From IMG/VR virus record IMGVR_UViG_3300042539_001740: DNA of 64,000 nt; one strand, given 5' to 3'. Below are positions 1-61,993 of this stretch, in pieces. Position 1 is the stretch's first letter, and the number at the start of each line of letters is the position of its first letter. This stretch comes from a virus (lineage: Duplodnaviria; Caudoviricetes). Position numbers and translations under genes: made by a program. The notes beneath the pieces were generated by a model, which did not search any database, was not told the DNA's origin, and saw only the letters and a list, made by a program, of their open reading frames with translations.

Positions 1-120
1 ATGAGCGCATCTCAGAAACAAGCAGCTTGTGCTCAGAAACGTAGGGCTGAAAAGAAAGACCCAAAGTTAGGTACTGGTAACAAACCTACGATGACATCAT
101 ACAAACCAAAGAAAAAATAA
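1..120 (+). CDS. Probable 3' end of a basic phage protein (MSASQKQAACAQKRRAEKKDPKLGTGNKPTMTSYKPKKK*); may begin upstream of the window
   Basis: Open frame from base 1 to TAA at 118-120, followed by a terminator-like hairpin. Confidence 0.55.
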   Translation: MSASQKQAACAQKRRAEKKDPKLGTGNKPTMTSYKPKKK

Positions 121-555
121 TTATTTAGAAGGGGTTAAATCAGATAGTGATTTAACCTTTTTTATTATGTTTTCTAATGAGTGTTCTATTTGTGACATTA
201 TTTGGTCTTCGTACTCTTGTCTAATTGTTTCCACTTTTCCATCATACATTTTTGATAATCTTTCCCAATTTCTATCACCAACAACAACATCATAGTGGTA
301 CACGTGATTTGTGATACTGATTGTTCCGTGGTCTAAGATGCAAAACAAATCTAATTCTGCATTTTTGATATAACGTTTTCCACTTAAAGGTGCTAACAAG
401 AATTTTGATTCGGGATGTGTAATAAGTGAACGAGCAATTGACATACACATTTTTTGGGTTTCTGAGATTTTTTCTTTTTTGGCTACACTTTTACTATTCC
501 AAGTTAACCATTTGACATAGATTCTTTTTGTGATTCGTTTGATGAACTTTTCCAT
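121..555 (-). CDS. Hypothetical protein (144 aa), probably expressed early
   Basis: Clean ORF preceded by a Bacteroidota-type promoter. Confidence 0.75.
   Translation of the reverse strand: MEKFIKRITKRIYVKWLTWNSKSVAKKEKISETQKMCMSIARSLITHPESKFLLAPLSGKRYIKNAELDLFCILDHGTISITNHVYHYDVVVGDRNWERLSKMYDGKVETIRQEYEDQIMSQIEHSLENIIKKVKSLSDLTPSK
133..163 (+). terminator. Intrinsic terminator overlapping the 3' end of the convergent gene
   Basis: GGTTAAATC / GATTTAACC 9-bp stem, 7-nt loop, then T6. Confidence 0.55.
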
Positions 556-581
556 ATGATTGTTTATTTTTTGATTGAGTA

Positions 582-612
582 CAAATATATGGATAGGTTT
601 TGATAAAACAAA
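582..612 (-). promoter_or_regulatory. Bacteroidota primary-sigma promoter (-33 TTTG / -7 TAnnTTTG)
   Basis: Minus strand reads TTTG-N19-TATATTTG, ~27 nt upstream of the ATG at 555. Confidence 0.65.
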
Positions 613-642
613 AAAAAAGGTAGAAAATAATTCTACCTTTTT
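610..642 (-). terminator. Intrinsic terminator, possibly bidirectional
   Basis: AGGTAGAA / TTCTACCT stem flanked by A9 and T5, downstream of ORF 656-1120. Confidence 0.7.
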
Positions 643-655
643 AATAATTTATAAT

Positions 656-1120
656 TTAACAATAAGGTGGGGAACAACGTTTCTTTCCATCTAATCCTTT
701 CATTTTACCTTTACAAACTTGAACGGCAAAACCGTTCGCATAAGCGGAGGGGTACACTTTGAATTTGGATTTAGCTGCAGCTTTTCCTCGACTACATAGT
801 TTTGTACCAGTTTTCTTTTTCCCTTCCATCATAACCATTTCTTCGTCTTCTTCATAGTCATCATATTGAGTTTCATTCATCATAAAATCAAATACCTGAC
901 TTAGATTTTCTTTTGCTACTGTTATATGGTCATCAGCCCAATCGTGACCACCTTTTAGGATAGCTTCAACTTCCATAGGGTCTAACTCTAATAATAATTG
1001 AGCTTGTCTTATCATTTGTTCTAAGTTTGAAAAGAACATATAGTTTTGGATTTGTCCATAATCCTTTTCATTAACTATTTTTTTAACTAAGTTGTTAAGT
1101 TGTGATTCTGTAATTCTCAT
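656..1120 (-). CDS. Hypothetical protein with a 'RITESQL..LVKKIVNE' leader and a basic Cys-containing C-terminal domain (YPSAYANG motif)
   Basis: ORF translation. Confidence 0.75.
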   Translation of the reverse strand: MRITESQLNNLVKKIVNEKDYGQIQNYMFFSNLEQMIRQAQLLLELDPMEVEAILKGGHDWADDHITVAKENLSQVFDFMMNETQYDDYEEDEEMVMMEGKKKTGTKLCSRGKAAAKSKFKVYPSAYANGFAVQVCKGKMKGLDGKKRCSPPYC

Positions 1121-54998: not shown

Positions 54999-55877
54999 AT
55001 GAAAACATTATTCCTAACTTGTATATACAATAACTTATTTGGTACTGAGTTTGGTGGTAGACCTAGTAGAGAAGAACATTATAAATATAGCTTGTTATCA
55101 CTATTGAGAATGACAAGTGCCGATTTTATTTGTTATACAAATCCAAGTGATTTGTCAAATCTGGAACATTTTTTTCATAATCAAAATGGAATATCAAAAG
55201 ATAAATTAAAATTCATTCCTTTCAAACTAAAGGATACAAAACATCATCATATTTTTTCGAAGTACAAAGACATTGATACGATAAAGAATGGTGATAGATG
55301 TTTTGAAATTCAGTACAATAAGTTTTTTTGGTTTTTCAATGAAACGTTAAGTTACGACAACTATTATTGGATAGATGCAGGTCTAAGTCATTGTGGTATT
55401 ATTCCCGACAAGTATTTGGTGAACAATAACACTTATCAAAGATATTTTAATTCTTACTTTTTTGATGACACCTTTTTAGATAGGTTAATTGAAAAATCGA
55501 AGGACAAGATTTTAGTAATTGGTAAATCTAATACTGGCTCAAATTTTTGGTCGAATACTTTACCCAATGAATATTATATAGAATACGATAGTTCGTATCA
55601 TATAATTGGTGGTTTATTTGGTGGAACAAAAAAAGTTATGAAAAAATTTGTTGAGGAGTTTGAAAGGATTTTCTTGTGGGTTACTGAAAAAGAAAAAAAA
55701 CTATATTCTGAGGAACAAATTATGACCACAATCTTTATGAATAATAAAGAATGGTTTAATTTATTTTCATTCGATGTTTGGTGGCACGAAAACAATTTAA
55801 CACCTGATTGTCCATCAAATTATTTAACAATTAACAAAAGTTTTTATAAAAGTTTGGAGGATATAAAAGGTGAATAA
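54999..55877 (+). CDS. HtrL/YibB-like putative glycosyltransferase
   Basis: YYWIDAG, IIGGLFGG, SEEQIM; paralogous to the N-half of the next gene. Confidence 0.6.
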   Translation: MKTLFLTCIYNNLFGTEFGGRPSREEHYKYSLLSLLRMTSADFICYTNPSDLSNLEHFFHNQNGISKDKLKFIPFKLKDTKHHHIFSKYKDIDTIKNGDRCFEIQYNKFFWFFNETLSYDNYYWIDAGLSHCGIIPDKYLVNNNTYQRYFNSYFFDDTFLDRLIEKSKDKILVIGKSNTGSNFWSNTLPNEYYIEYDSSYHIIGGLFGGTKKVMKKFVEEFERIFLWVTEKEKKLYSEEQIMTTIFMNNKEWFNLFSFDVWWHENNLTPDCPSNYLTINKSFYKSLEDIKGE

Positions 55878-57543
55878 TTTAACATTAGTAACAGGATTAT
55901 GGGATATAGGTAGAGACCAATTAACTGAAGGTTGGTCAAGAACATACCAACACTATTTAGATAAGTTTGAAAGTTTACTCAAATTAGATGTAAACTTAAT
56001 AATATTTGGTGATACCGACTTACAAAGATTTGTAGAACAAAGAAGAGATTCACATAACACACAATTCATAATAAGACCAAAAGATTGGTTCATTAATAAT
56101 GAGTTCTATCCAAAGATACAAAAGATTAGGCAAGACCCAAGTTGGTACAATCAAGTTGGTTGGTTAAAAGATTCAACCCAAGCAAAACTTGAAATGTATA
56201 ATCCTTTGGTTATGTCCAAAATGTTCTTACTAAATGATGCAAGAATATTGGATAAGTTTAACTCAGATTATATGTTTTGGATTGATGCTGGTATTACAAA
56301 CACAATTCATCCTGGTTATTTTACCCACGATAAAGTATTAGACAAATTACCCAAATATGTAGATAGATTCCATTTCGTTTGTTTCCCTTATGAAACAAGT
56401 ACAGAGATTCACGGATTTGAAATAAATGCGATGAATAATTACACCAAAACAAAAACAAACAGAGTTGCAAGGGGTGGTTTCTTTGGTGGAAAAAAAGAAA
56501 GAATCAATGATATGAACTCATTGTATTATATGTTACTTAATGATTCATTATCAAAAGGATTTATGGGCACTGAAGAATCCATATTCACAATAATGACTTA
56601 TCTATATCCCCAACATATCAACTATTCAATGATAGAGGGTAATGGATTGATGGGTAAGTTTTTTGAGGATTTGAAGAACGACACATTGGAAGTATTAAAT
56701 GAAACACCTGAACCAATCAAATATCAAAGTAATGATATATCTAAGGTGGGTTTATATGTTATCACATTCAACTCACCAAAACAATTTGAGACCTTAATAA
56801 AATCAATGTTAGAATATGATAGGGATTTTATAACCAAACCAAGAAAGTTTTTGTTGGATAACTCAACAGATTTATCAACAACACCAAGATATAAAGAATT
56901 GTGTGAACAATATGGATTTGAACATATAAAGAAAGATAATATTGGCATAATGGGGGGTAGGATATTTGTTGCCGAACATTTTAATGATACCGATTTAGAT
57001 TTCTACTGGTTTTGGGAAGATGATATGTTTTTCTATCCAAAGAATGAAACTTGTAAAAATGGATTTAATAGATATGTAATCAACTTATATCAAAAAAGTT
57101 TAGAGATTATTCAAAAAGAAAAGTTCGATTTTCTTAAACTAAATTATACGGAGTTTTATGGTGACAATGGAACACAGTGGGCGTGGTACAATGTACCCCA
57201 AGATTTTAGACAAAAACATTGGCCAAACAATCCAAAACTTCCACAGATGGGATTAGACCCAAATGCACCTAAAACAAAGTTTGAATTCATCAGTACTCAT
57301 AAAGGTGTACCATATGTAGGTGGAGAAATCTACCTATCAAATTGGCCAATCGTTTTAAGTAAAGAAGGTAATTATAAATGTTATTTGGAAACAAAATGGG
57401 CTCACCCATTCGAACAGACCCTCATGTCGTATTGTTACCAAGAAACAATAAAAGGGAAAATTAAACCTGGTTTATTGTTGTTAACCCCCACCGAGCACAA
57501 TAGGTTCGACCATTACGATTCAAAATTGAGAAAAGAAAATTAA
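55870..57543 (+). CDS. HtrL/YibB-like domain fused to a GT-A domain
   Basis: LVTGLWDIGR, FWIDAG, GGFFGG, TEE; C-half LLDNS, FWEDD. Confidence 0.65.
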   Translation: MNNLTLVTGLWDIGRDQLTEGWSRTYQHYLDKFESLLKLDVNLIIFGDTDLQRFVEQRRDSHNTQFIIRPKDWFINNEFYPKIQKIRQDPSWYNQVGWLKDSTQAKLEMYNPLVMSKMFLLNDARILDKFNSDYMFWIDAGITNTIHPGYFTHDKVLDKLPKYVDRFHFVCFPYETSTEIHGFEINAMNNYTKTKTNRVARGGFFGGKKERINDMNSLYYMLLNDSLSKGFMGTEESIFTIMTYLYPQHINYSMIEGNGLMGKFFEDLKNDTLEVLNETPEPIKYQSNDISKVGLYVITFNSPKQFETLIKSMLEYDRDFITKPRKFLLDNSTDLSTTPRYKELCEQYGFEHIKKDNIGIMGGRIFVAEHFNDTDLDFYWFWEDDMFFYPKNETCKNGFNRYVINLYQKSLEIIQKEKFDFLKLNYTEFYGDNGTQWAWYNVPQDFRQKHWPNNPKLPQMGLDPNAPKTKFEFISTHKGVPYVGGEIYLSNWPIVLSKEGNYKCYLETKWAHPFEQTLMSYCYQETIKGKIKPGLLLLTPTEHNRFDHYDSKLRKEN

Positions 57544-57561
57544 AAAAAAATCAATAAAAGT

Positions 57562-57592
57562 TTTGGATATTTATAAAGAGATTGTATCTTTG
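57562..57592 (+). promoter_or_regulatory. Bacteroidota primary-sigma promoter
   Basis: TTTG-N19-TATCTTTG, with a TATTTAT motif inside the spacer. Confidence 0.7.
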
Positions 57593-57597
57593 TAAAA

Positions 57598-57804
57598 CAA
57601 TAAAGGGTTAGAATAATGGTCTTGGTTGATGACTTTCCTTAAAGTTAGGGTGTGTGGGCAACTCCTGATAGTCGAAAATGATAGACAGCTTGATTACATC
57701 GAAAGATGGTGACTATTGGCTCTCTGGTATATAGCCAAACCAGCGTGTCTCCAAAGTACGAAAATTGGAAACTTGAAAAGGGTGAGAATTATTCTCACCT
57801 TTTT
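57598..57804 (+). ncRNA. Candidate structured non-coding RNA, family not recognised
   Basis: Promoter-to-terminator unit with no credible ORF; about 40% GC by hand count; GNRA-capped stems and long-range complementarity. Confidence 0.5.
57776..57804. terminator. Bidirectional intrinsic terminator
   Basis: GGTGAGAA / TTCTCACC stem with A4 upstream and T5 downstream. Confidence 0.75.
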
Positions 57805-58381
57805 ATATTGTATATTTACCGCAATACTCATAATTTTTATCACGCATTTCAACCCCTTTAATTTGAGTTTTCAATGTTATCCTATATCTTTTACTTTCAA
57901 AGATATTCTTATGGACAACGAATGCGACTGTATATGGTACTATTTTCCCATTCTTGGTTATAGAATCTGTTTTGATAGTAAAACAAAGTTCTTTCTTGTT
58001 ATCCCAATTATTATTAACAATCGTATCATAAATTGAGGGTATTGATTTAAAAACTAAATCGACACCTTCGGTGGTAAAAGGATTGTATATATCAGGGTTA
58101 TTTTTGTTTTCTGGTTCGTCCTTTCTTCTATATCTACTACAATAATGGTCAGTTTGTTCAACAGTAAATCTACTTCTTTTATATTTGTAACTTTTTAATT
58201 CATCGTAATAACTCTCTATTATTTTTTTAGCATAATTAAATAGACCATCATTACATTTTAGTGTTGTTGACCCTTCATTTAATAAAATGAGATGATTTAA
58301 TTCATTTATGGAAATTTCTTTCACATAGATTTTTTTAGGGTAAAATTCCTCAAATAATATTTTTCTTATCAATTTTTCCAT
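57803..58381 (-). CDS. Hypothetical protein; start revised to MEKLIRKILFEE at 58381
   Basis: ORF; the upstream in-frame ATG falls inside the promoter-like inverted repeat. Confidence 0.65.
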   Translation of the reverse strand: MEKLIRKILFEEFYPKKIYVKEISINELNHLILLNEGSTTLKCNDGLFNYAKKIIESYYDELKSYKYKRSRFTVEQTDHYCSRYRRKDEPENKNNPDIYNPFTTEGVDLVFKSIPSIYDTIVNNNWDNKKELCFTIKTDSITKNGKIVPYTVAFVVHKNIFESKRYRITLKTQIKGVEMRDKNYEYCGKYTI

Positions 58382-58386
58382 ACAAA

Positions 58387-58415
58387 TATAAATACCATAC
58401 AAAAGAGTATTTATA
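58387..58415. promoter_or_regulatory. Second back-to-back TATTTAT pair at a divergence point
   Basis: TATAAATAC-N11-GTATTTATA. Confidence 0.5.
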
Positions 58416-58427
58416 TATAAAAACTAA

Positions 58428-59180
58428 ATGGAATTCTTTATTAAAAAGAACGCAACCCTACCCCTCCTTAAGCTTCAGGTGGTGAAGAATGGCAGATTGG
58501 ATTATGATAATTTTATGTCGTTAATCGAAGAATCGGCATTATTCTTTTCAATGATGGATGTGGAGACTGGTGTTCCAAAGATTACATCGAGACCTGCGGG
58601 ATTTGTTGAAAAAACAAATGTTGACCCTAATGCTGACCCTGAATATTATTTATACTATCAATTTCAAAATAGAGACACAAATAGAGTAGGAAGATTCGAG
58701 GGTCAATTTATGTTAAGAAGTTCTGATGGTGTATTAATTTTACCTATTAGAGAAAAGTTATATATTAATGTACAAGAATCTTATATTGCTGATGATTTGG
58801 AATATGATAGTTGTTATGTATCAGAGTTTCCTTGTTGTATAAATGGCCCTGCAACTGGACTAACAATTAATCTTAATTTAACAAGTATTGTAACATCAGG
58901 TTCAGTAAATGTTGATTATGTTATAACTTCATCACAACAATTAAACAATCAATTAGATTTAACTTTCACAAATACATTAGGTCAAATAACTGGTACAGGT
59001 ATTACAATTACATCAGCAATAACAATTAATTCAGGTACAACAATAGGATATGCTCAAGTTATAACTGGTGATGATTATACGGATTTAGATGGTACATCAG
59101 TATTCACTAATTTAGCTGTAACTTATCCTATTTCCTACACTTTCGACATAACCACTAATAGTATTTTTCCTGATTTGTAA
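58428..59180 (+). CDS. Putative virion protein with a BppU-N-like domain
   Basis: FFIKKNATLPLL...YYQFQNRDT...GRFEGQF pattern. Confidence 0.5.
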   Translation: MEFFIKKNATLPLLKLQVVKNGRLDYDNFMSLIEESALFFSMMDVETGVPKITSRPAGFVEKTNVDPNADPEYYLYYQFQNRDTNRVGRFEGQFMLRSSDGVLILPIREKLYINVQESYIADDLEYDSCYVSEFPCCINGPATGLTINLNLTSIVTSGSVNVDYVITSSQQLNNQLDLTFTNTLGQITGTGITITSAITINSGTTIGYAQVITGDDYTDLDGTSVFTNLAVTYPISYTFDITTNSIFPDL

Positions 59181-59275: not shown

Positions 59276-61993
59276 ATGATTACACCTGAAGAAATCGAAA
59301 GTTTCTTAAACGGAAACGACCCCGAAGAGCACATCGTTGCCATAGAATATGATTGGGCAACAGAAAACATTTTCAAAATCAAAGAAATCCCTGGAAAAGG
59401 GAAAGAAATTAGAAAAGATACATTCACCCCATTTGCTTGGGTTGGTGACCTCCACGGACTTAACTTTTACAAATCATCCAAAGGACTTCAAAAAGAAGCA
59501 ATGACCAAACACGGAATCCTAATTGAGAAATTGGATACTGGTGGAAATGAACGATTAGAAAAAGGTCTAAAGTTTTTGGTTAAATCTTTAAAAGGATATA
59601 GAAGTTTAATGCAATTCTTCAAAGAAGGAGGAATTGACCCATATGGAGATAATACTAAAGAATACTTCCTTATACCATCACCAGTAGAACAATACCTTAT
59701 CCAAAAGGAAAAAAGATTGTTTAAGGGTTATGAAGAATACAATGACATTACAAGATTAGGATTCGACTTAGAAACGACCTCTTTAGAACCTAAAGATGGT
59801 CGAATCTTTATGATTGGAATCAAAACAAATAAAGGACTACAAAAAGTAATCGAATGTGCCAATGAAGACCAAGAACGAGCTGGTATTGTTGAGTTCTTTA
59901 GAACAATAGATGAAGTTAAACCATCAATCATTGGTGGATACAATTCATTCAACTTCGACTGGTATTGGATTATGGAAAGATGTAAAGCTCTACATTTGGA
60001 TATCAAAAAGATATGCAAAACTTTACATCCAGAATATAATATGAAACAAACCAAGGGTATGTTAAAACTTGCTAATGAAGTTGAGGAATATACACAGATT
60101 GGAATGTGGGGATATAATGTTATTGATATTCTACACTCCGTTAGAAGAGCACAAGCAATCAACTCAAACATCAAATCCGCTGGTCTTAAATATATTACCC
60201 AATACATCAATGCTGAAGCTGAAGACCGAGTTTATATTGGACATACTGATATCGGTTCAATGTACGCCAAGAAAGAAGAGTATTGGTTAAATGTTAAGAA
60301 TGGTAAATACAAAAAGGCCGACAAACCTGAATACAACGACTTGGATAAAAAATATCCTGGTATCTATATCAAAACAACTGGTGATAATATTGTTGAACGA
60401 TACTTGGATGATGACTTGGAAGAAACCTTGAAGGTGGATGATGAGTTTAATCAAGGAACATTTATGTTGGCATCGATGATTCCAACAACATATGAAAGAG
60501 TTTCCACCATGGGGACAGCCACTTTGTGGAAGATGCTTATGATGGCTTGGTCTTATAAGTATAAATTGGCCATCCCCCAAAAAGAACAAAAGAAAGATTT
60601 TGTTGGTGGATTATCAAGATTGTTAAGAGTGGGTTATTCGAAGGATGTATTAAAACTTGACTACTCATCTCTTTATCCATCTATTCAATTAGTACACGAT
60701 GTTTTCCCTGATTGTGATATTATGGGGGCTATGAAAGGTATGTTGTCTTATTTTAGAAGTGCTCGTATCAAATACAAGAACTTAGCAGCTGAATGGTATG
60801 ACAAGGATAAGAAAAAATCATTGTCCTACGATAGAAAACAATTACCCATTAAGATTTTTATCAACTCAATGTTTGGTGCTTTATCAGCTCCACAAGTGTT
60901 TGCTTGGGGTGATATGTATATGGGTGAACAGATTACTTGTACAGGAAGACAATATCTTCGTCAAATGTTAAAGTTCTTTATGAAGAGGGGTTATACTGCG
61001 TTGGTATGTGATACGGATGGTATGAACTTCTCATTACCTGAAGGTGGTGTTGATGATAGAGTTTATATTGGTAAAGGTCTTAATTGGAAAGTTAAGAAAG
61101 GAAAAGAATATAAAGGTTATGATGCTGATGTTGCTGAGTTCAACGACACCTTTATGAAGGGTGAAATGGCATTAGATTGTGATGGAACTTGGAAATCTTG
61201 TATTAATCTTGCTCGTAAGAATTATGCAACGATGGAACATAATGGTAAAATCAAATTGACTGGTAACTCAATCAAATCCAAAAAACTTCCATTATACATT
61301 GAGGAATATTTGGATAAAGCAATTAGATTATTATTGGAAGGTGAGGGACAGAAGTTTGTTGAATGGTATTATGAATACTTAACTAAAATCTATAACAAAG
61401 AAATCCCCCTTCTTAAAATTGCACAAAGAGCAAAAGTTAAGTTGAGTATTAAGGATTATATTGAGAGGTCAAAACAAACAACCAAATCAGGTGGTGCCAT
61501 GTCTAGAATGGCGCATATGGAACTGGCTATTAAACACAATCTAAAGGTGAATCTTGGTGAGGTGATTTATTATGTTAATAATGGTGTCAAAGCAAGTCAC
61601 GGAGATGTTCAAAAGAAGAAAGATGAAGTGGTATTAAATTGTTATATGTTAAATCCAAATGACATTGAGAATAATCCTGATATGTTGGGTGATTATAATG
61701 TAGCAAGAGCAATAACAACTTTCAATAATCGTATTGAACCTTTATTAGTTGTATTCAAACAAGAAGTTAGAGATACTTTAATTATTGATAACCCTGAGAA
61801 AAGACAATTCTATACACAACAACAATGTGAACTAATTAATGGAGTACCATTTGAAGAAAAAGACCAAGATAGAATCAAAGAGGATTTGTTAGATTTAGAA
61901 CCAAAAGAAATAGAGTATTGGAACAAAAGAGGAATTGACCCCAACTATATTTACGATTTGGCTGAAGAAGGATGGGAACAATATATTGATTAA
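59276..61993 (+). CDS. polB: Family B DNA polymerase
   Basis: FDLET, GYNSFNFD, DYSSLYPS, KIFINSMFG, CDTDG. Confidence 0.95.
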   Translation: MITPEEIESFLNGNDPEEHIVAIEYDWATENIFKIKEIPGKGKEIRKDTFTPFAWVGDLHGLNFYKSSKGLQKEAMTKHGILIEKLDTGGNERLEKGLKFLVKSLKGYRSLMQFFKEGGIDPYGDNTKEYFLIPSPVEQYLIQKEKRLFKGYEEYNDITRLGFDLETTSLEPKDGRIFMIGIKTNKGLQKVIECANEDQERAGIVEFFRTIDEVKPSIIGGYNSFNFDWYWIMERCKALHLDIKKICKTLHPEYNMKQTKGMLKLANEVEEYTQIGMWGYNVIDILHSVRRAQAINSNIKSAGLKYITQYINAEAEDRVYIGHTDIGSMYAKKEEYWLNVKNGKYKKADKPEYNDLDKKYPGIYIKTTGDNIVERYLDDDLEETLKVDDEFNQGTFMLASMIPTTYERVSTMGTATLWKMLMMAWSYKYKLAIPQKEQKKDFVGGLSRLLRVGYSKDVLKLDYSSLYPSIQLVHDVFPDCDIMGAMKGMLSYFRSARIKYKNLAAEWYDKDKKKSLSYDRKQLPIKIFINSMFGALSAPQVFAWGDMYMGEQITCTGRQYLRQMLKFFMKRGYTALVCDTDGMNFSLPEGGVDDRVYIGKGLNWKVKKGKEYKGYDADVAEFNDTFMKGEMALDCDGTWKSCINLARKNYATMEHNGKIKLTGNSIKSKKLPLYIEEYLDKAIRLLLEGEGQKFVEWYYEYLTKIYNKEIPLLKIAQRAKVKLSIKDYIERSKQTTKSGGAMSRMAHMELAIKHNLKVNLGEVIYYVNNGVKASHGDVQKKKDEVVLNCYMLNPNDIENNPDMLGDYNVARAITTFNNRIEPLLVVFKQEVRDTLIIDNPEKRQFYTQQQCELINGVPFEEKDQDRIKEDLLDLEPKEIEYWNKRGIDPNYIYDLAEEGWEQYID

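Follow-up and report, generated by a model that had tools for sequence, protein, structure and literature searches.

A structured RNA family and a convergent protein gene form a conserved cassette in jumbo phages of Bacteroidota

Introduction

Type III toxin–antitoxin systems (ToxIN, CptIN and TenpIN) are two-gene RNA–protein modules found in bacterial defence islands. Their antitoxins are arrays of 34–45-nt direct repeats that are processed by the toxin, and the RNA is encoded upstream of the toxin gene on the same strand, with a terminator between the two. T4 RegB, a phage RNase in which His48 is a catalytic residue (PMC3014915), is expressed from an early promoter and has no linked RNA. GOLLD, the “species 1 and 2” RNAs of T4 (rnaC/rnaD) and the pRNA of phi29 are free-standing, stable-looking structured RNAs encoded by phages; the last of these contains a three-way junction and functions through its binding to a phage protein. 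In Bacteroidota phages, the UG27 ncRNA arrays consist of ~150-nt units with a pseudoknot (bioRxiv 10.64898/2026.09.22.753630).

Here we describe a family of structured RNAs that, together with a protein gene, makes up a conserved cassette in jumbo phages of Bacteroidota. The locus lies in a 64,000-nt stretch of DNA (the window), which belongs to an IMG/VR virus record of 194 kb with an estimated completeness of 66%. Like the type III systems, it is a two-gene module with a pseudoknotted RNA and, in this case, a candidate small endoribonuclease, and it shares with them a sporadic, mobile-element-like distribution and an RNA copy number that varies between loci. Instead of a repeat array, however, the RNA is a single unit of 150–205 nt with a three-way junction, within which TRF detects no repeats, and where RNAs are duplicated (L175–L177, L188) they are duplicated as whole units only. 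At all loci the RNA gene is convergent with the protein gene, with its own promoter and a common terminator. The partner protein matches no ToxN, AbiQ, CptN or TenpN model (Pfam at E < 5, PADLOC at E < 1), its weak fold signal is RelE/RegB-like and not Kid/MazF-like, and the cassette resides in lytic jumbo phages. Since the repeat array, the same-strand order and a ToxN-type toxin are all missing, we describe the cassette as working perhaps like a type III system and not as a member of that group.

The other described systems resemble the cassette in part. The partner protein finds its best structural match in T4 RegB, and a helix histidine that follows a beta-hairpin aligns with RegB His48, in a match that is weak (Z ~5); unlike RegB, to which it has no significant sequence or profile similarity, the partner has a phage-type promoter and an N-terminal leader. 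The RNA is free-standing and stable-looking like the orphan phage RNAs, has a three-way junction like pRNA, and in one locus (L189) lies ~2 kb from a GOLLD RNA, but in Rfam scans it has no sequence or model similarity to any of them. It is also much smaller than GOLLD, does not, unlike rnaC/rnaD, belong to a tRNA cluster, and is, unlike pRNA, sporadic and tied to a small non-structural protein. UG27 arrays share with it a unit length of ~150 nt, hairpins combined with a pseudoknot, a variable number of units and an occurrence in Bacteroidota phages. They differ in that the RNA-bearing genomes described here have no reverse transcriptase (RT), carry one or two copies against an array of about six units, and encode a three-way junction where UG27 has a long interrupted hairpin.

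Well-supported new classes of structured RNA are uncommon, and the RNA described here has a covarying three-way junction together with a pseudoknot. Its single obligate protein partner, of no known family, provides a handle for finding its function.

Results

A free-standing transcription unit with a host-type promoter

The RNA is located between a gene for a 557-aa HtrL_YibB-like glycosyltransferase (55870–57543, plus strand) and a minus-strand ORF (57803–58402), with a family-B DNA polymerase gene (59276–61993) farther along past that ORF. Its predicted promoter comprises a −33 element TTTG (57562–57565), a 19-nt spacer and a −7 element TATCTTTG (57585–57592), and fits the Bacteroidota −33/−7 consensus. 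The terminator at the other end is the sole terminator-like site within 57000–58600, and the stop codon of the minus-strand gene (57803–57805) falls at this terminator, an arrangement that is repeated at all loci. GC content is 41% at the RNA and ~29% in its flanks. The ORFs on the RNA strand are 11–34 codons long and show no conservation; a 28-aa frame at 57626–57712, for example, runs into a stop after four codons in L004. A first-pass annotation, made from the sequence of the window, had claimed an exact Bacteroidota promoter, a stretch of ~40% GC in AT-rich surroundings, a strong terminator and no credible ORF, and all four claims agree with what we found. Among homologues with readable upstream DNA, the pattern TTTG-N19-20-TAnnTTTG precedes nearly every RNA (L008–L010 are without a clean −7 box), and an intrinsic terminator lies downstream of every complete copy.

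No known family accounts for the RNA. Rfam 15, whose families include riboswitches, ribozymes, 6S, SRP, tmRNA, pRNA, GOLLD and YrlA, gave 0 matches in the whole window at the gathering score, and a sensitive local scan at E < 10 returned terminator look-alikes only, of at most 22 bits. The RNA copies in 17 homologous loci likewise matched no Rfam model, in a scan that found GOLLD and tmRNA elsewhere in L189, and ARAGORN predicted 0 tRNA or tmRNA genes in the window; the first-pass annotation, which could assign the RNA to no known family, was thus right on this point. BLAST searches of the RNA and of the surrounding 12 kb against GenBank phages found no match, and a literature search located no description of the RNA. 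We consider it to represent a previously undescribed family of structured phage non-coding RNAs.

Several candidate identities were rejected: a riboswitch, for which there is no downstream gene on the RNA strand; a small protein-coding ORF, given the unconserved frames; a tRNA-like RNA or tmRNA, on the ARAGORN result; a CRISPR-like or tandem-repeat antitoxin, on the TRF result; and an antisense RNA to the 5′ end of the partner gene, for which the complementarity to the translation start shows no excess.

Homologues and RNA types

Eighty related phage loci were recovered via the flanking glycosyltransferase, 11 of which carry the RNA as judged by nhmmer (72–77% identity). Full-length homology to the window RNA extends to L002–L008 and L052. 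A 17-nt pattern scan of IMG/VR revealed a second, shorter RNA type in other jumbo phages of ~300 kb, searches by the neighbouring protein added further, more divergent forms, and a metagenome scan by protein pattern gave at least eight loci. Altogether, the family comprises ~25–26 distinct core sequences from related and more distant jumbo-phage contigs. Its members are 150–205 nt long, with a long type of ~205 nt and a short type of ~150 nt whose 3′ domain differs and in which the 5′ hairpins are missing. Which RNA type a locus carries follows the clade of its protein.

Two local peculiarities were observed at the 5′ side. Relative to all close relatives, the window has ~19 extra bases near the RNA 5′ end (57604–57623), which resemble a partly duplicated copy of the GGTTGA... 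sequence that opens the conserved region. In L186, L188 and L189, a second small conserved element is present ~60–150 nt upstream of the RNA promoter, with a TAnnTTTG-like −7 box, a short AT-rich hairpin (ACGATATATTTATCGT) and TATAAT. In L189, a metagenomic phage contig, the immediate neighbours of the cassette are a GOLLD RNA (Rfam RF02032, 310 bits), a tmRNA (80 bits) and the gene for a phage SmpB, which together make a compact structured-RNA island with elements at 16–436 (+), 511–957 (+) and 1500–1884 (−).

Covariation supports a three-way junction and a pseudoknot

The single-sequence fold of the window RNA is unexceptional (z = −1.3), and support for the structure therefore rests on the comparison of homologues. 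We built a covariance model (R1) from seven long-type cores and scored the R1 alignment of 23 matches with the pseudoknot written in. Standard pairs fill 92.7% of the paired cells against 71.8% in shuffles, 21 of the 23 pairs show double (both-side) changes, and on any measure none of 500 shuffles reaches the observed value. In controls in which the pairing partners were slid by 1–3 columns, 24–51% of cells were paired. Compensatory changes occur in every helix, and pseudoknot stem S2 covaries although it is absent from the aligning model. Because MAFFT alone misaligned the short-type RNAs, R1 and a scripted stem finder were used for these. R1 aligned the short type over the three-way junction only, so that the covariation of its pseudoknot rests on the script listing, in which GTTAGG/CCTAAC, GTTGAG/CTCAAC and GTCA-GG/CCTGAC are found. 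The first-pass annotation had named homologue collection and covariation among the ways to check its candidate, and on this comparison of sequences we judge the RNA to be almost certainly real and structured.

The predicted core is a three-way junction (P1, P2 and a GNRA-capped P3, with conserved junction bases) followed by an H-type pseudoknot (Table 1). The junction bases are conserved in all RNA types. P3 is invariant in close relatives and is replaced by CACU/AGUG, CCUC/GAGG or CGGU/ACCG in distant ones. In the 5′ hairpins of the long type, Pa is nearly invariant, with one compensatory change in L052, and Pb has three pairs with double changes (e.g., AU, GC and UA for the pair of alignment columns 67 and 75). 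All hairpins listed in the first-pass annotation lie where it had placed them. It had also proposed a pseudoknot, which does exist in the form of the covarying S1 and S2, but from the wrong pairs and without S2: the supposedly crossing GATAGTC/GACTATT pairing (57667–57717) is the ordinary nested stem P1, and the AGACA/TGTCT pairing (57683–57750) is not kept in relatives.

Some further structural features were noted. Wobble-rich pairs between 57667–57668 and 57716–57719 can extend P1 by using the TTGG of the S1 5′ strand, and the P1 extension and S1 are possible alternative conformers. Reading the sequences also gave the impression that the tandem G.A pairs might form a k-turn or k-junction and that the 3′ hairpin might contain a sarcin-ricin-like motif.

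Table 1. Predicted features of the RNA–protein cassette and other ORFs of the window that are preceded by TATTTAT
Feature	Position	Strand	Basis or remark
Host-type (Bacteroidota sigma-A) promoter	57562–57592	+	Sequence and regex scan; predicted start ~57600
Predicted transcript of the structured RNA, ~205 nt, long type	57600–57805	+	Bounded by promoter and terminator
5′ hairpin Pa, GACTTT/AAAGTT, long type only	57631–57646	+	RNAalifold columns 41–46/55–60
5′ hairpin Pb, including GG-GCAA-CT, long type only	57649–57666	+	Columns 62–68/74–79
Three-way junction	57669–57715	+	Covariation
P1	57669–57673 with 57711–57715	+	5/5 pairs with double changes, 99% paired
J1/2 GAAAAUGA	57674–57681	+	
P2, variable hairpin, flanking tandem G.A (57680–57681 with 57692–57693)	57682–57691	+	3/3 pairs with double changes
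J2/3 UUA (usually AAUA elsewhere)	57694–57696	+	
P3 CAUC-GAAA-GAUG	57697–57708	+	3/4 pairs with double changes, 100% paired
J3/1 GU	57709–57710	+	
H-type pseudoknot, then conserved CG (57744–57745)	57716–57745	+	Covariation; stems listed per sequence
S1 TTGGCT/AGCCAA	57716–57721 with 57733–57738	+	5/6 pairs with double changes
S2 CTGGT/ACCAG	57724–57728 with 57739–57743	+	5/5 pairs with double changes, 93% paired
Variable 3′ hairpin TCCAA/TTGGA	57750–57769	+	Sequence and shape differ between types; loop often GNRA-like in relatives
Bidirectional intrinsic terminator, common to RNA and convergent protein gene	57776–57804	both	13 pairs and T tract
Partner protein gene, 192 aa from ATG 58381	57803–58381	−	Homologue convergent to every RNA copy
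Phage-type promoter-like motif TATTTATA	58387–58394	−	Starts 13 nt upstream of partner ATG
Other ORFs with TATTTAT	3464, 31219, 34615, 37298	−	
Other ORFs with TATTTAT	37352, 43265, 48646, 58428	+	

The RNA is linked to one protein gene

At every RNA-bearing locus examined, a homologous protein gene is convergent to the RNA and shares its terminator. The encoded proteins range from 122 to 225 aa (194–225 aa in long-type loci and 122–174 aa in short-type loci), and the linkage holds down to ~16–25% protein identity and in different genomic neighbourhoods. The reverse also applies: divergent protein homologues with readable downstream DNA all have the RNA immediately 3′ on the opposite strand, in a check that excluded P0052 (no DNA) and in which the contigs of L191 and L192 end inside the RNA. 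Four complete relatives of 294–322 kb have no RNA in any of them; three (G001, G003 and G004) have no partner protein either, and the fourth (G002) has weak matches to the partner N-terminal leader only. In most relatives, the glycosyltransferase gene directly abuts the homologue of window gene 58428–59180, which gives the RNA and the gene convergent with it the appearance of an inserted cassette.

Two tandem RNAs are found beside one protein gene in L175–L177 (two of ~200 nt) and in L188 (one short and one long), and such a variable RNA copy number is as expected for a titratable partner. That the two occur together, are absent together and keep one arrangement in different neighbourhoods speaks for a functional pair, and we regard functional coupling of RNA and protein as likely; the same linkage could also arise if both genes merely travel together in one mobile cassette. 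The first-pass annotation had inferred a trans-acting phage RNA. A free-standing structured non-coding RNA with its own host-type promoter and terminator is indeed what the sequences indicate, but the phrase is too vague and the partner gene had been missed.

HNH-type endonuclease genes (MEKKICSKCK...HIDH...) adjoin the cassette in L052 (5671–6255 and 8128–8838), L188 (3914–4588) and L082 (8479–9357), which is consistent with a recombination-prone, mobile region.

The partner protein

The partner begins with an N-terminal leader MEKLIRKILFEE, which is followed by a disordered linker and by an alpha/beta domain (residues 44–178). In its AlphaFold models (pLDDT 79 and, for AF2, 83.7), a 12-residue helix at the N terminus is joined by a poorly defined linker to the alpha/beta domain, which is modelled with confidence. 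The protein matches no family in Pfam (E < 5), PHROG or PADLOC (E < 1); its homologues fall into 64 clusters of unnamed proteins, and it is fast-evolving.

In an exhaustive structural comparison, T4 RegB was the best match of both models (Z 4.8 and 5.0, with 120–124 residues aligned). Members of the RegB/RelE–ParE superfamily share a fold in which an antiparallel sheet of four strands packs on helices. The match to RegB structure 2hx6 (Z 5.0, rmsd 4.5, 120 residues aligned) is in a range, Z < 8, that may reflect a common arrangement only. RelE (2kc8; Z 4.8, rmsd 3.7, 80 residues aligned) and the next ~20 matches, which are RelE/ParE/HigB/YoeB/YafQ/BrnT toxins with Z 3–4.5, are below the reliable level. 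Foldseek found nothing in the PDB at E < 0.05, and searches of the ESM Atlas by shape and of PDB sequences by profile gave nothing usable; by features, the best ESM Atlas match (0.84) was annotated RNaseH_like and is below the reliable range. The Pfam model REGB_T4 (PF10715) has no match in the partner and is absent from the genome. The alignment to T4 RegB by hhalign is not significant (probability 0.4%), and its only aligned segment, of 17 residues, places His79 of the partner on RegB His48. This histidine is invariant across the 49 sequences of the partner alignment; no counterpart of the second catalytic histidine of RegB, His68, is evident. On the basis of these models, we treat a RegB/RelE-like endoribonuclease as a tentative lead, to which we give a minority share of the weight.

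The leader, MxxLI(R/K)xILxEE, is the best-conserved part of the family, with I5, L9 and E11 invariant, and it also heads unrelated ORFs in related phages. As MKELI(K/R)(K/R)(I/L/V)LREE, it heads at least five unrelated ORFs of 115–307 aa in complete related phages, at L197, L198 and L199 (records G002 and G022), three of them within the 3.2-kb locus L197. In the 66%-complete source genome, a strict regex for the leader found the partner protein only. Recurrence on unrelated ORFs would fit a shared address or processing signal.

Promoter types differ between RNA and protein

The RNA has a host-type promoter, and the partner gene is preceded by a phage TATTTAT motif. Either ATATTTAT or TATTTAT precedes the ATG in 21 of 22 partner genes examined, and in the window TATTTAT is found 12–24 nt upstream of eight other ORFs of at least 150 aa (Table 1). 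The motif recurs at a fixed short distance before the start codons of operon-leading genes, and at 58387–58415 two copies face outward and serve divergent genes. From its positions, TATTTAT is probably the phage's own promoter, perhaps a late one, or a leader element. Given the differing promoter types, we infer that synthesis of the RNA would come early and that of the protein later.

Discussion

We propose that host RNA polymerase would transcribe the RNA from the Bacteroidota-type promoter up to the terminator common with the convergent gene, and that the RNA would fold into a fixed shape and bind the partner protein. The bound RNA could then hold the partner in check or direct it, with a logic like that of a type III toxin–antitoxin pair and a protein that is possibly a RegB/RelE-like endoribonuclease. 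Taken as a whole, a folded RNA that binds and controls the partner of an obligate two-gene cassette is our best explanation, and we hold it with about even confidence. As to its parts, direct binding with control of the protein as the form of the coupling stands roughly in the balance, and an RNase that is inhibited by the RNA is possible but rather doubtful; RNA–protein binding, nuclease activity and inhibition are all steps that we infer. The conserved bases lie in junctions and not in open loops, and the complementarity of the RNA to the partner translation start shows no excess (z −1.6 to +2.8), which together argue for shape recognition over base pairing. The conservation of the cassette with the convergent gene points in the same direction, to a protein partner and not to a base-pairing regulator.

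If the partner is an RNA-neutralised nuclease, RNA antitoxins would no longer be confined to the three type III families: they would also act on a different protein fold and occur in lytic jumbo phages, and there would be an answer to the long-standing question of an “anti-RegB” for RegB-like phage RNases. If the partner is not a nuclease, the cassette would still be a compact, fast-evolving natural pair for RNA–protein recognition, useful for studies of co-evolution.

The RNA could instead act independently in trans on a host component: it might mimic a host RNA, or serve as a decoy or sponge against a host protein or a defence nuclease, and the protein would then be a co-travelling or co-operating gene product that does not bind it. 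We think this unlikely but give it appreciable weight, since immediate early expression is implied by the host-type promoter, the RNA has a compact and conserved fold, and the L189 cassette has GOLLD and tmRNA around it in a region rich in RNAs. There is also a precedent in phage mimics of antitoxins such as the pseudo-ToxI of phage PhiTE (PMC3475682). However, an independent RNA leaves unexplained the occurrence of the protein at every RNA locus, its absence wherever the RNA is missing and the agreement between RNA type and protein clade, and the Rfam scans revealed no similarity to any host RNA family.

A rather improbable elaboration of the toxin–antidote scheme is that the partner is a virion-packaged, injected RegB/RelE-like ribonuclease for host shutoff, addressed to the head by its MxxLIRKILxEE leader, and that the RNA is its dedicated antidote. 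The RNA, made immediately from the host-type promoter, would switch off the ejected enzyme after host messages have been destroyed, and RNA still present late would protect the producing cell during synthesis and loading of the enzyme. If true, a RelE-fold enzyme would for the first time be seen with an RNA antitoxin, and the pair would be the first toxin–antidote timer to form part of a virion.

It is also conceivable, although quite improbable in our view, that the RNA does not inhibit the partner enzyme but serves it as a substrate or is processed by it, or that the RNA is itself catalytic, for instance self-cleaving. Small ribozymes and specific RNase substrates typically have conserved bases at junctions and a pseudoknot, and the junction strands of 8, 4–5 and 2 nt loosely recall a hammerhead-like three-way junction. 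On the other hand, the ribozyme models of Rfam give no match even at E < 10, the core sequences of a hammerhead are missing, and no cleavage-site signature is visible from the sequence alone.

The convergent layout with a common bidirectional terminator resembles the par locus of pAD1. Its retention at all loci could suggest a cis-antisense (type I-like) regulator, in which the overlapping 3′ ends of the convergent transcripts control the protein mRNA. We regard this as highly doubtful: the overlap is the terminator hairpin only (~30 nt), antisense pairing needs neither a covarying three-way junction nor a pseudoknot, the mRNA 5′ region shows no excess complementarity, and type I toxins are small hydrophobic peptides, unlike the partner. 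Finally, the RNA could serve a reverse transcriptase or another nucleic-acid enzyme as template or guide (UG27, retron msr/msd or DGR), as suggested by the ~150-nt pseudoknotted units of UG27 in Bacteroidota phages and by the tandem RNA copies in some loci. This reading is already largely refuted: RVT_1 is absent from five RNA-bearing phage records (two of them 91–100% complete; control genomes positive), the genome has no second copy or variable repeat, and there is no tandem array. The same holds for a small protein gene, given the unconserved ORFs.

A chimeric RNA gene was observed in one relative, L012 (7350–8111), with the same promoter and the same two 5′ hairpins but with another ~150-nt body, which has its own terminator, in the place of the three-way junction and pseudoknot. 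Downstream of it, in place of the convergent partner, is a co-directional ORF of 172 aa (MKLLDTLKQIICE...), and this arrangement may represent a second, exchangeable RNA–protein pair.
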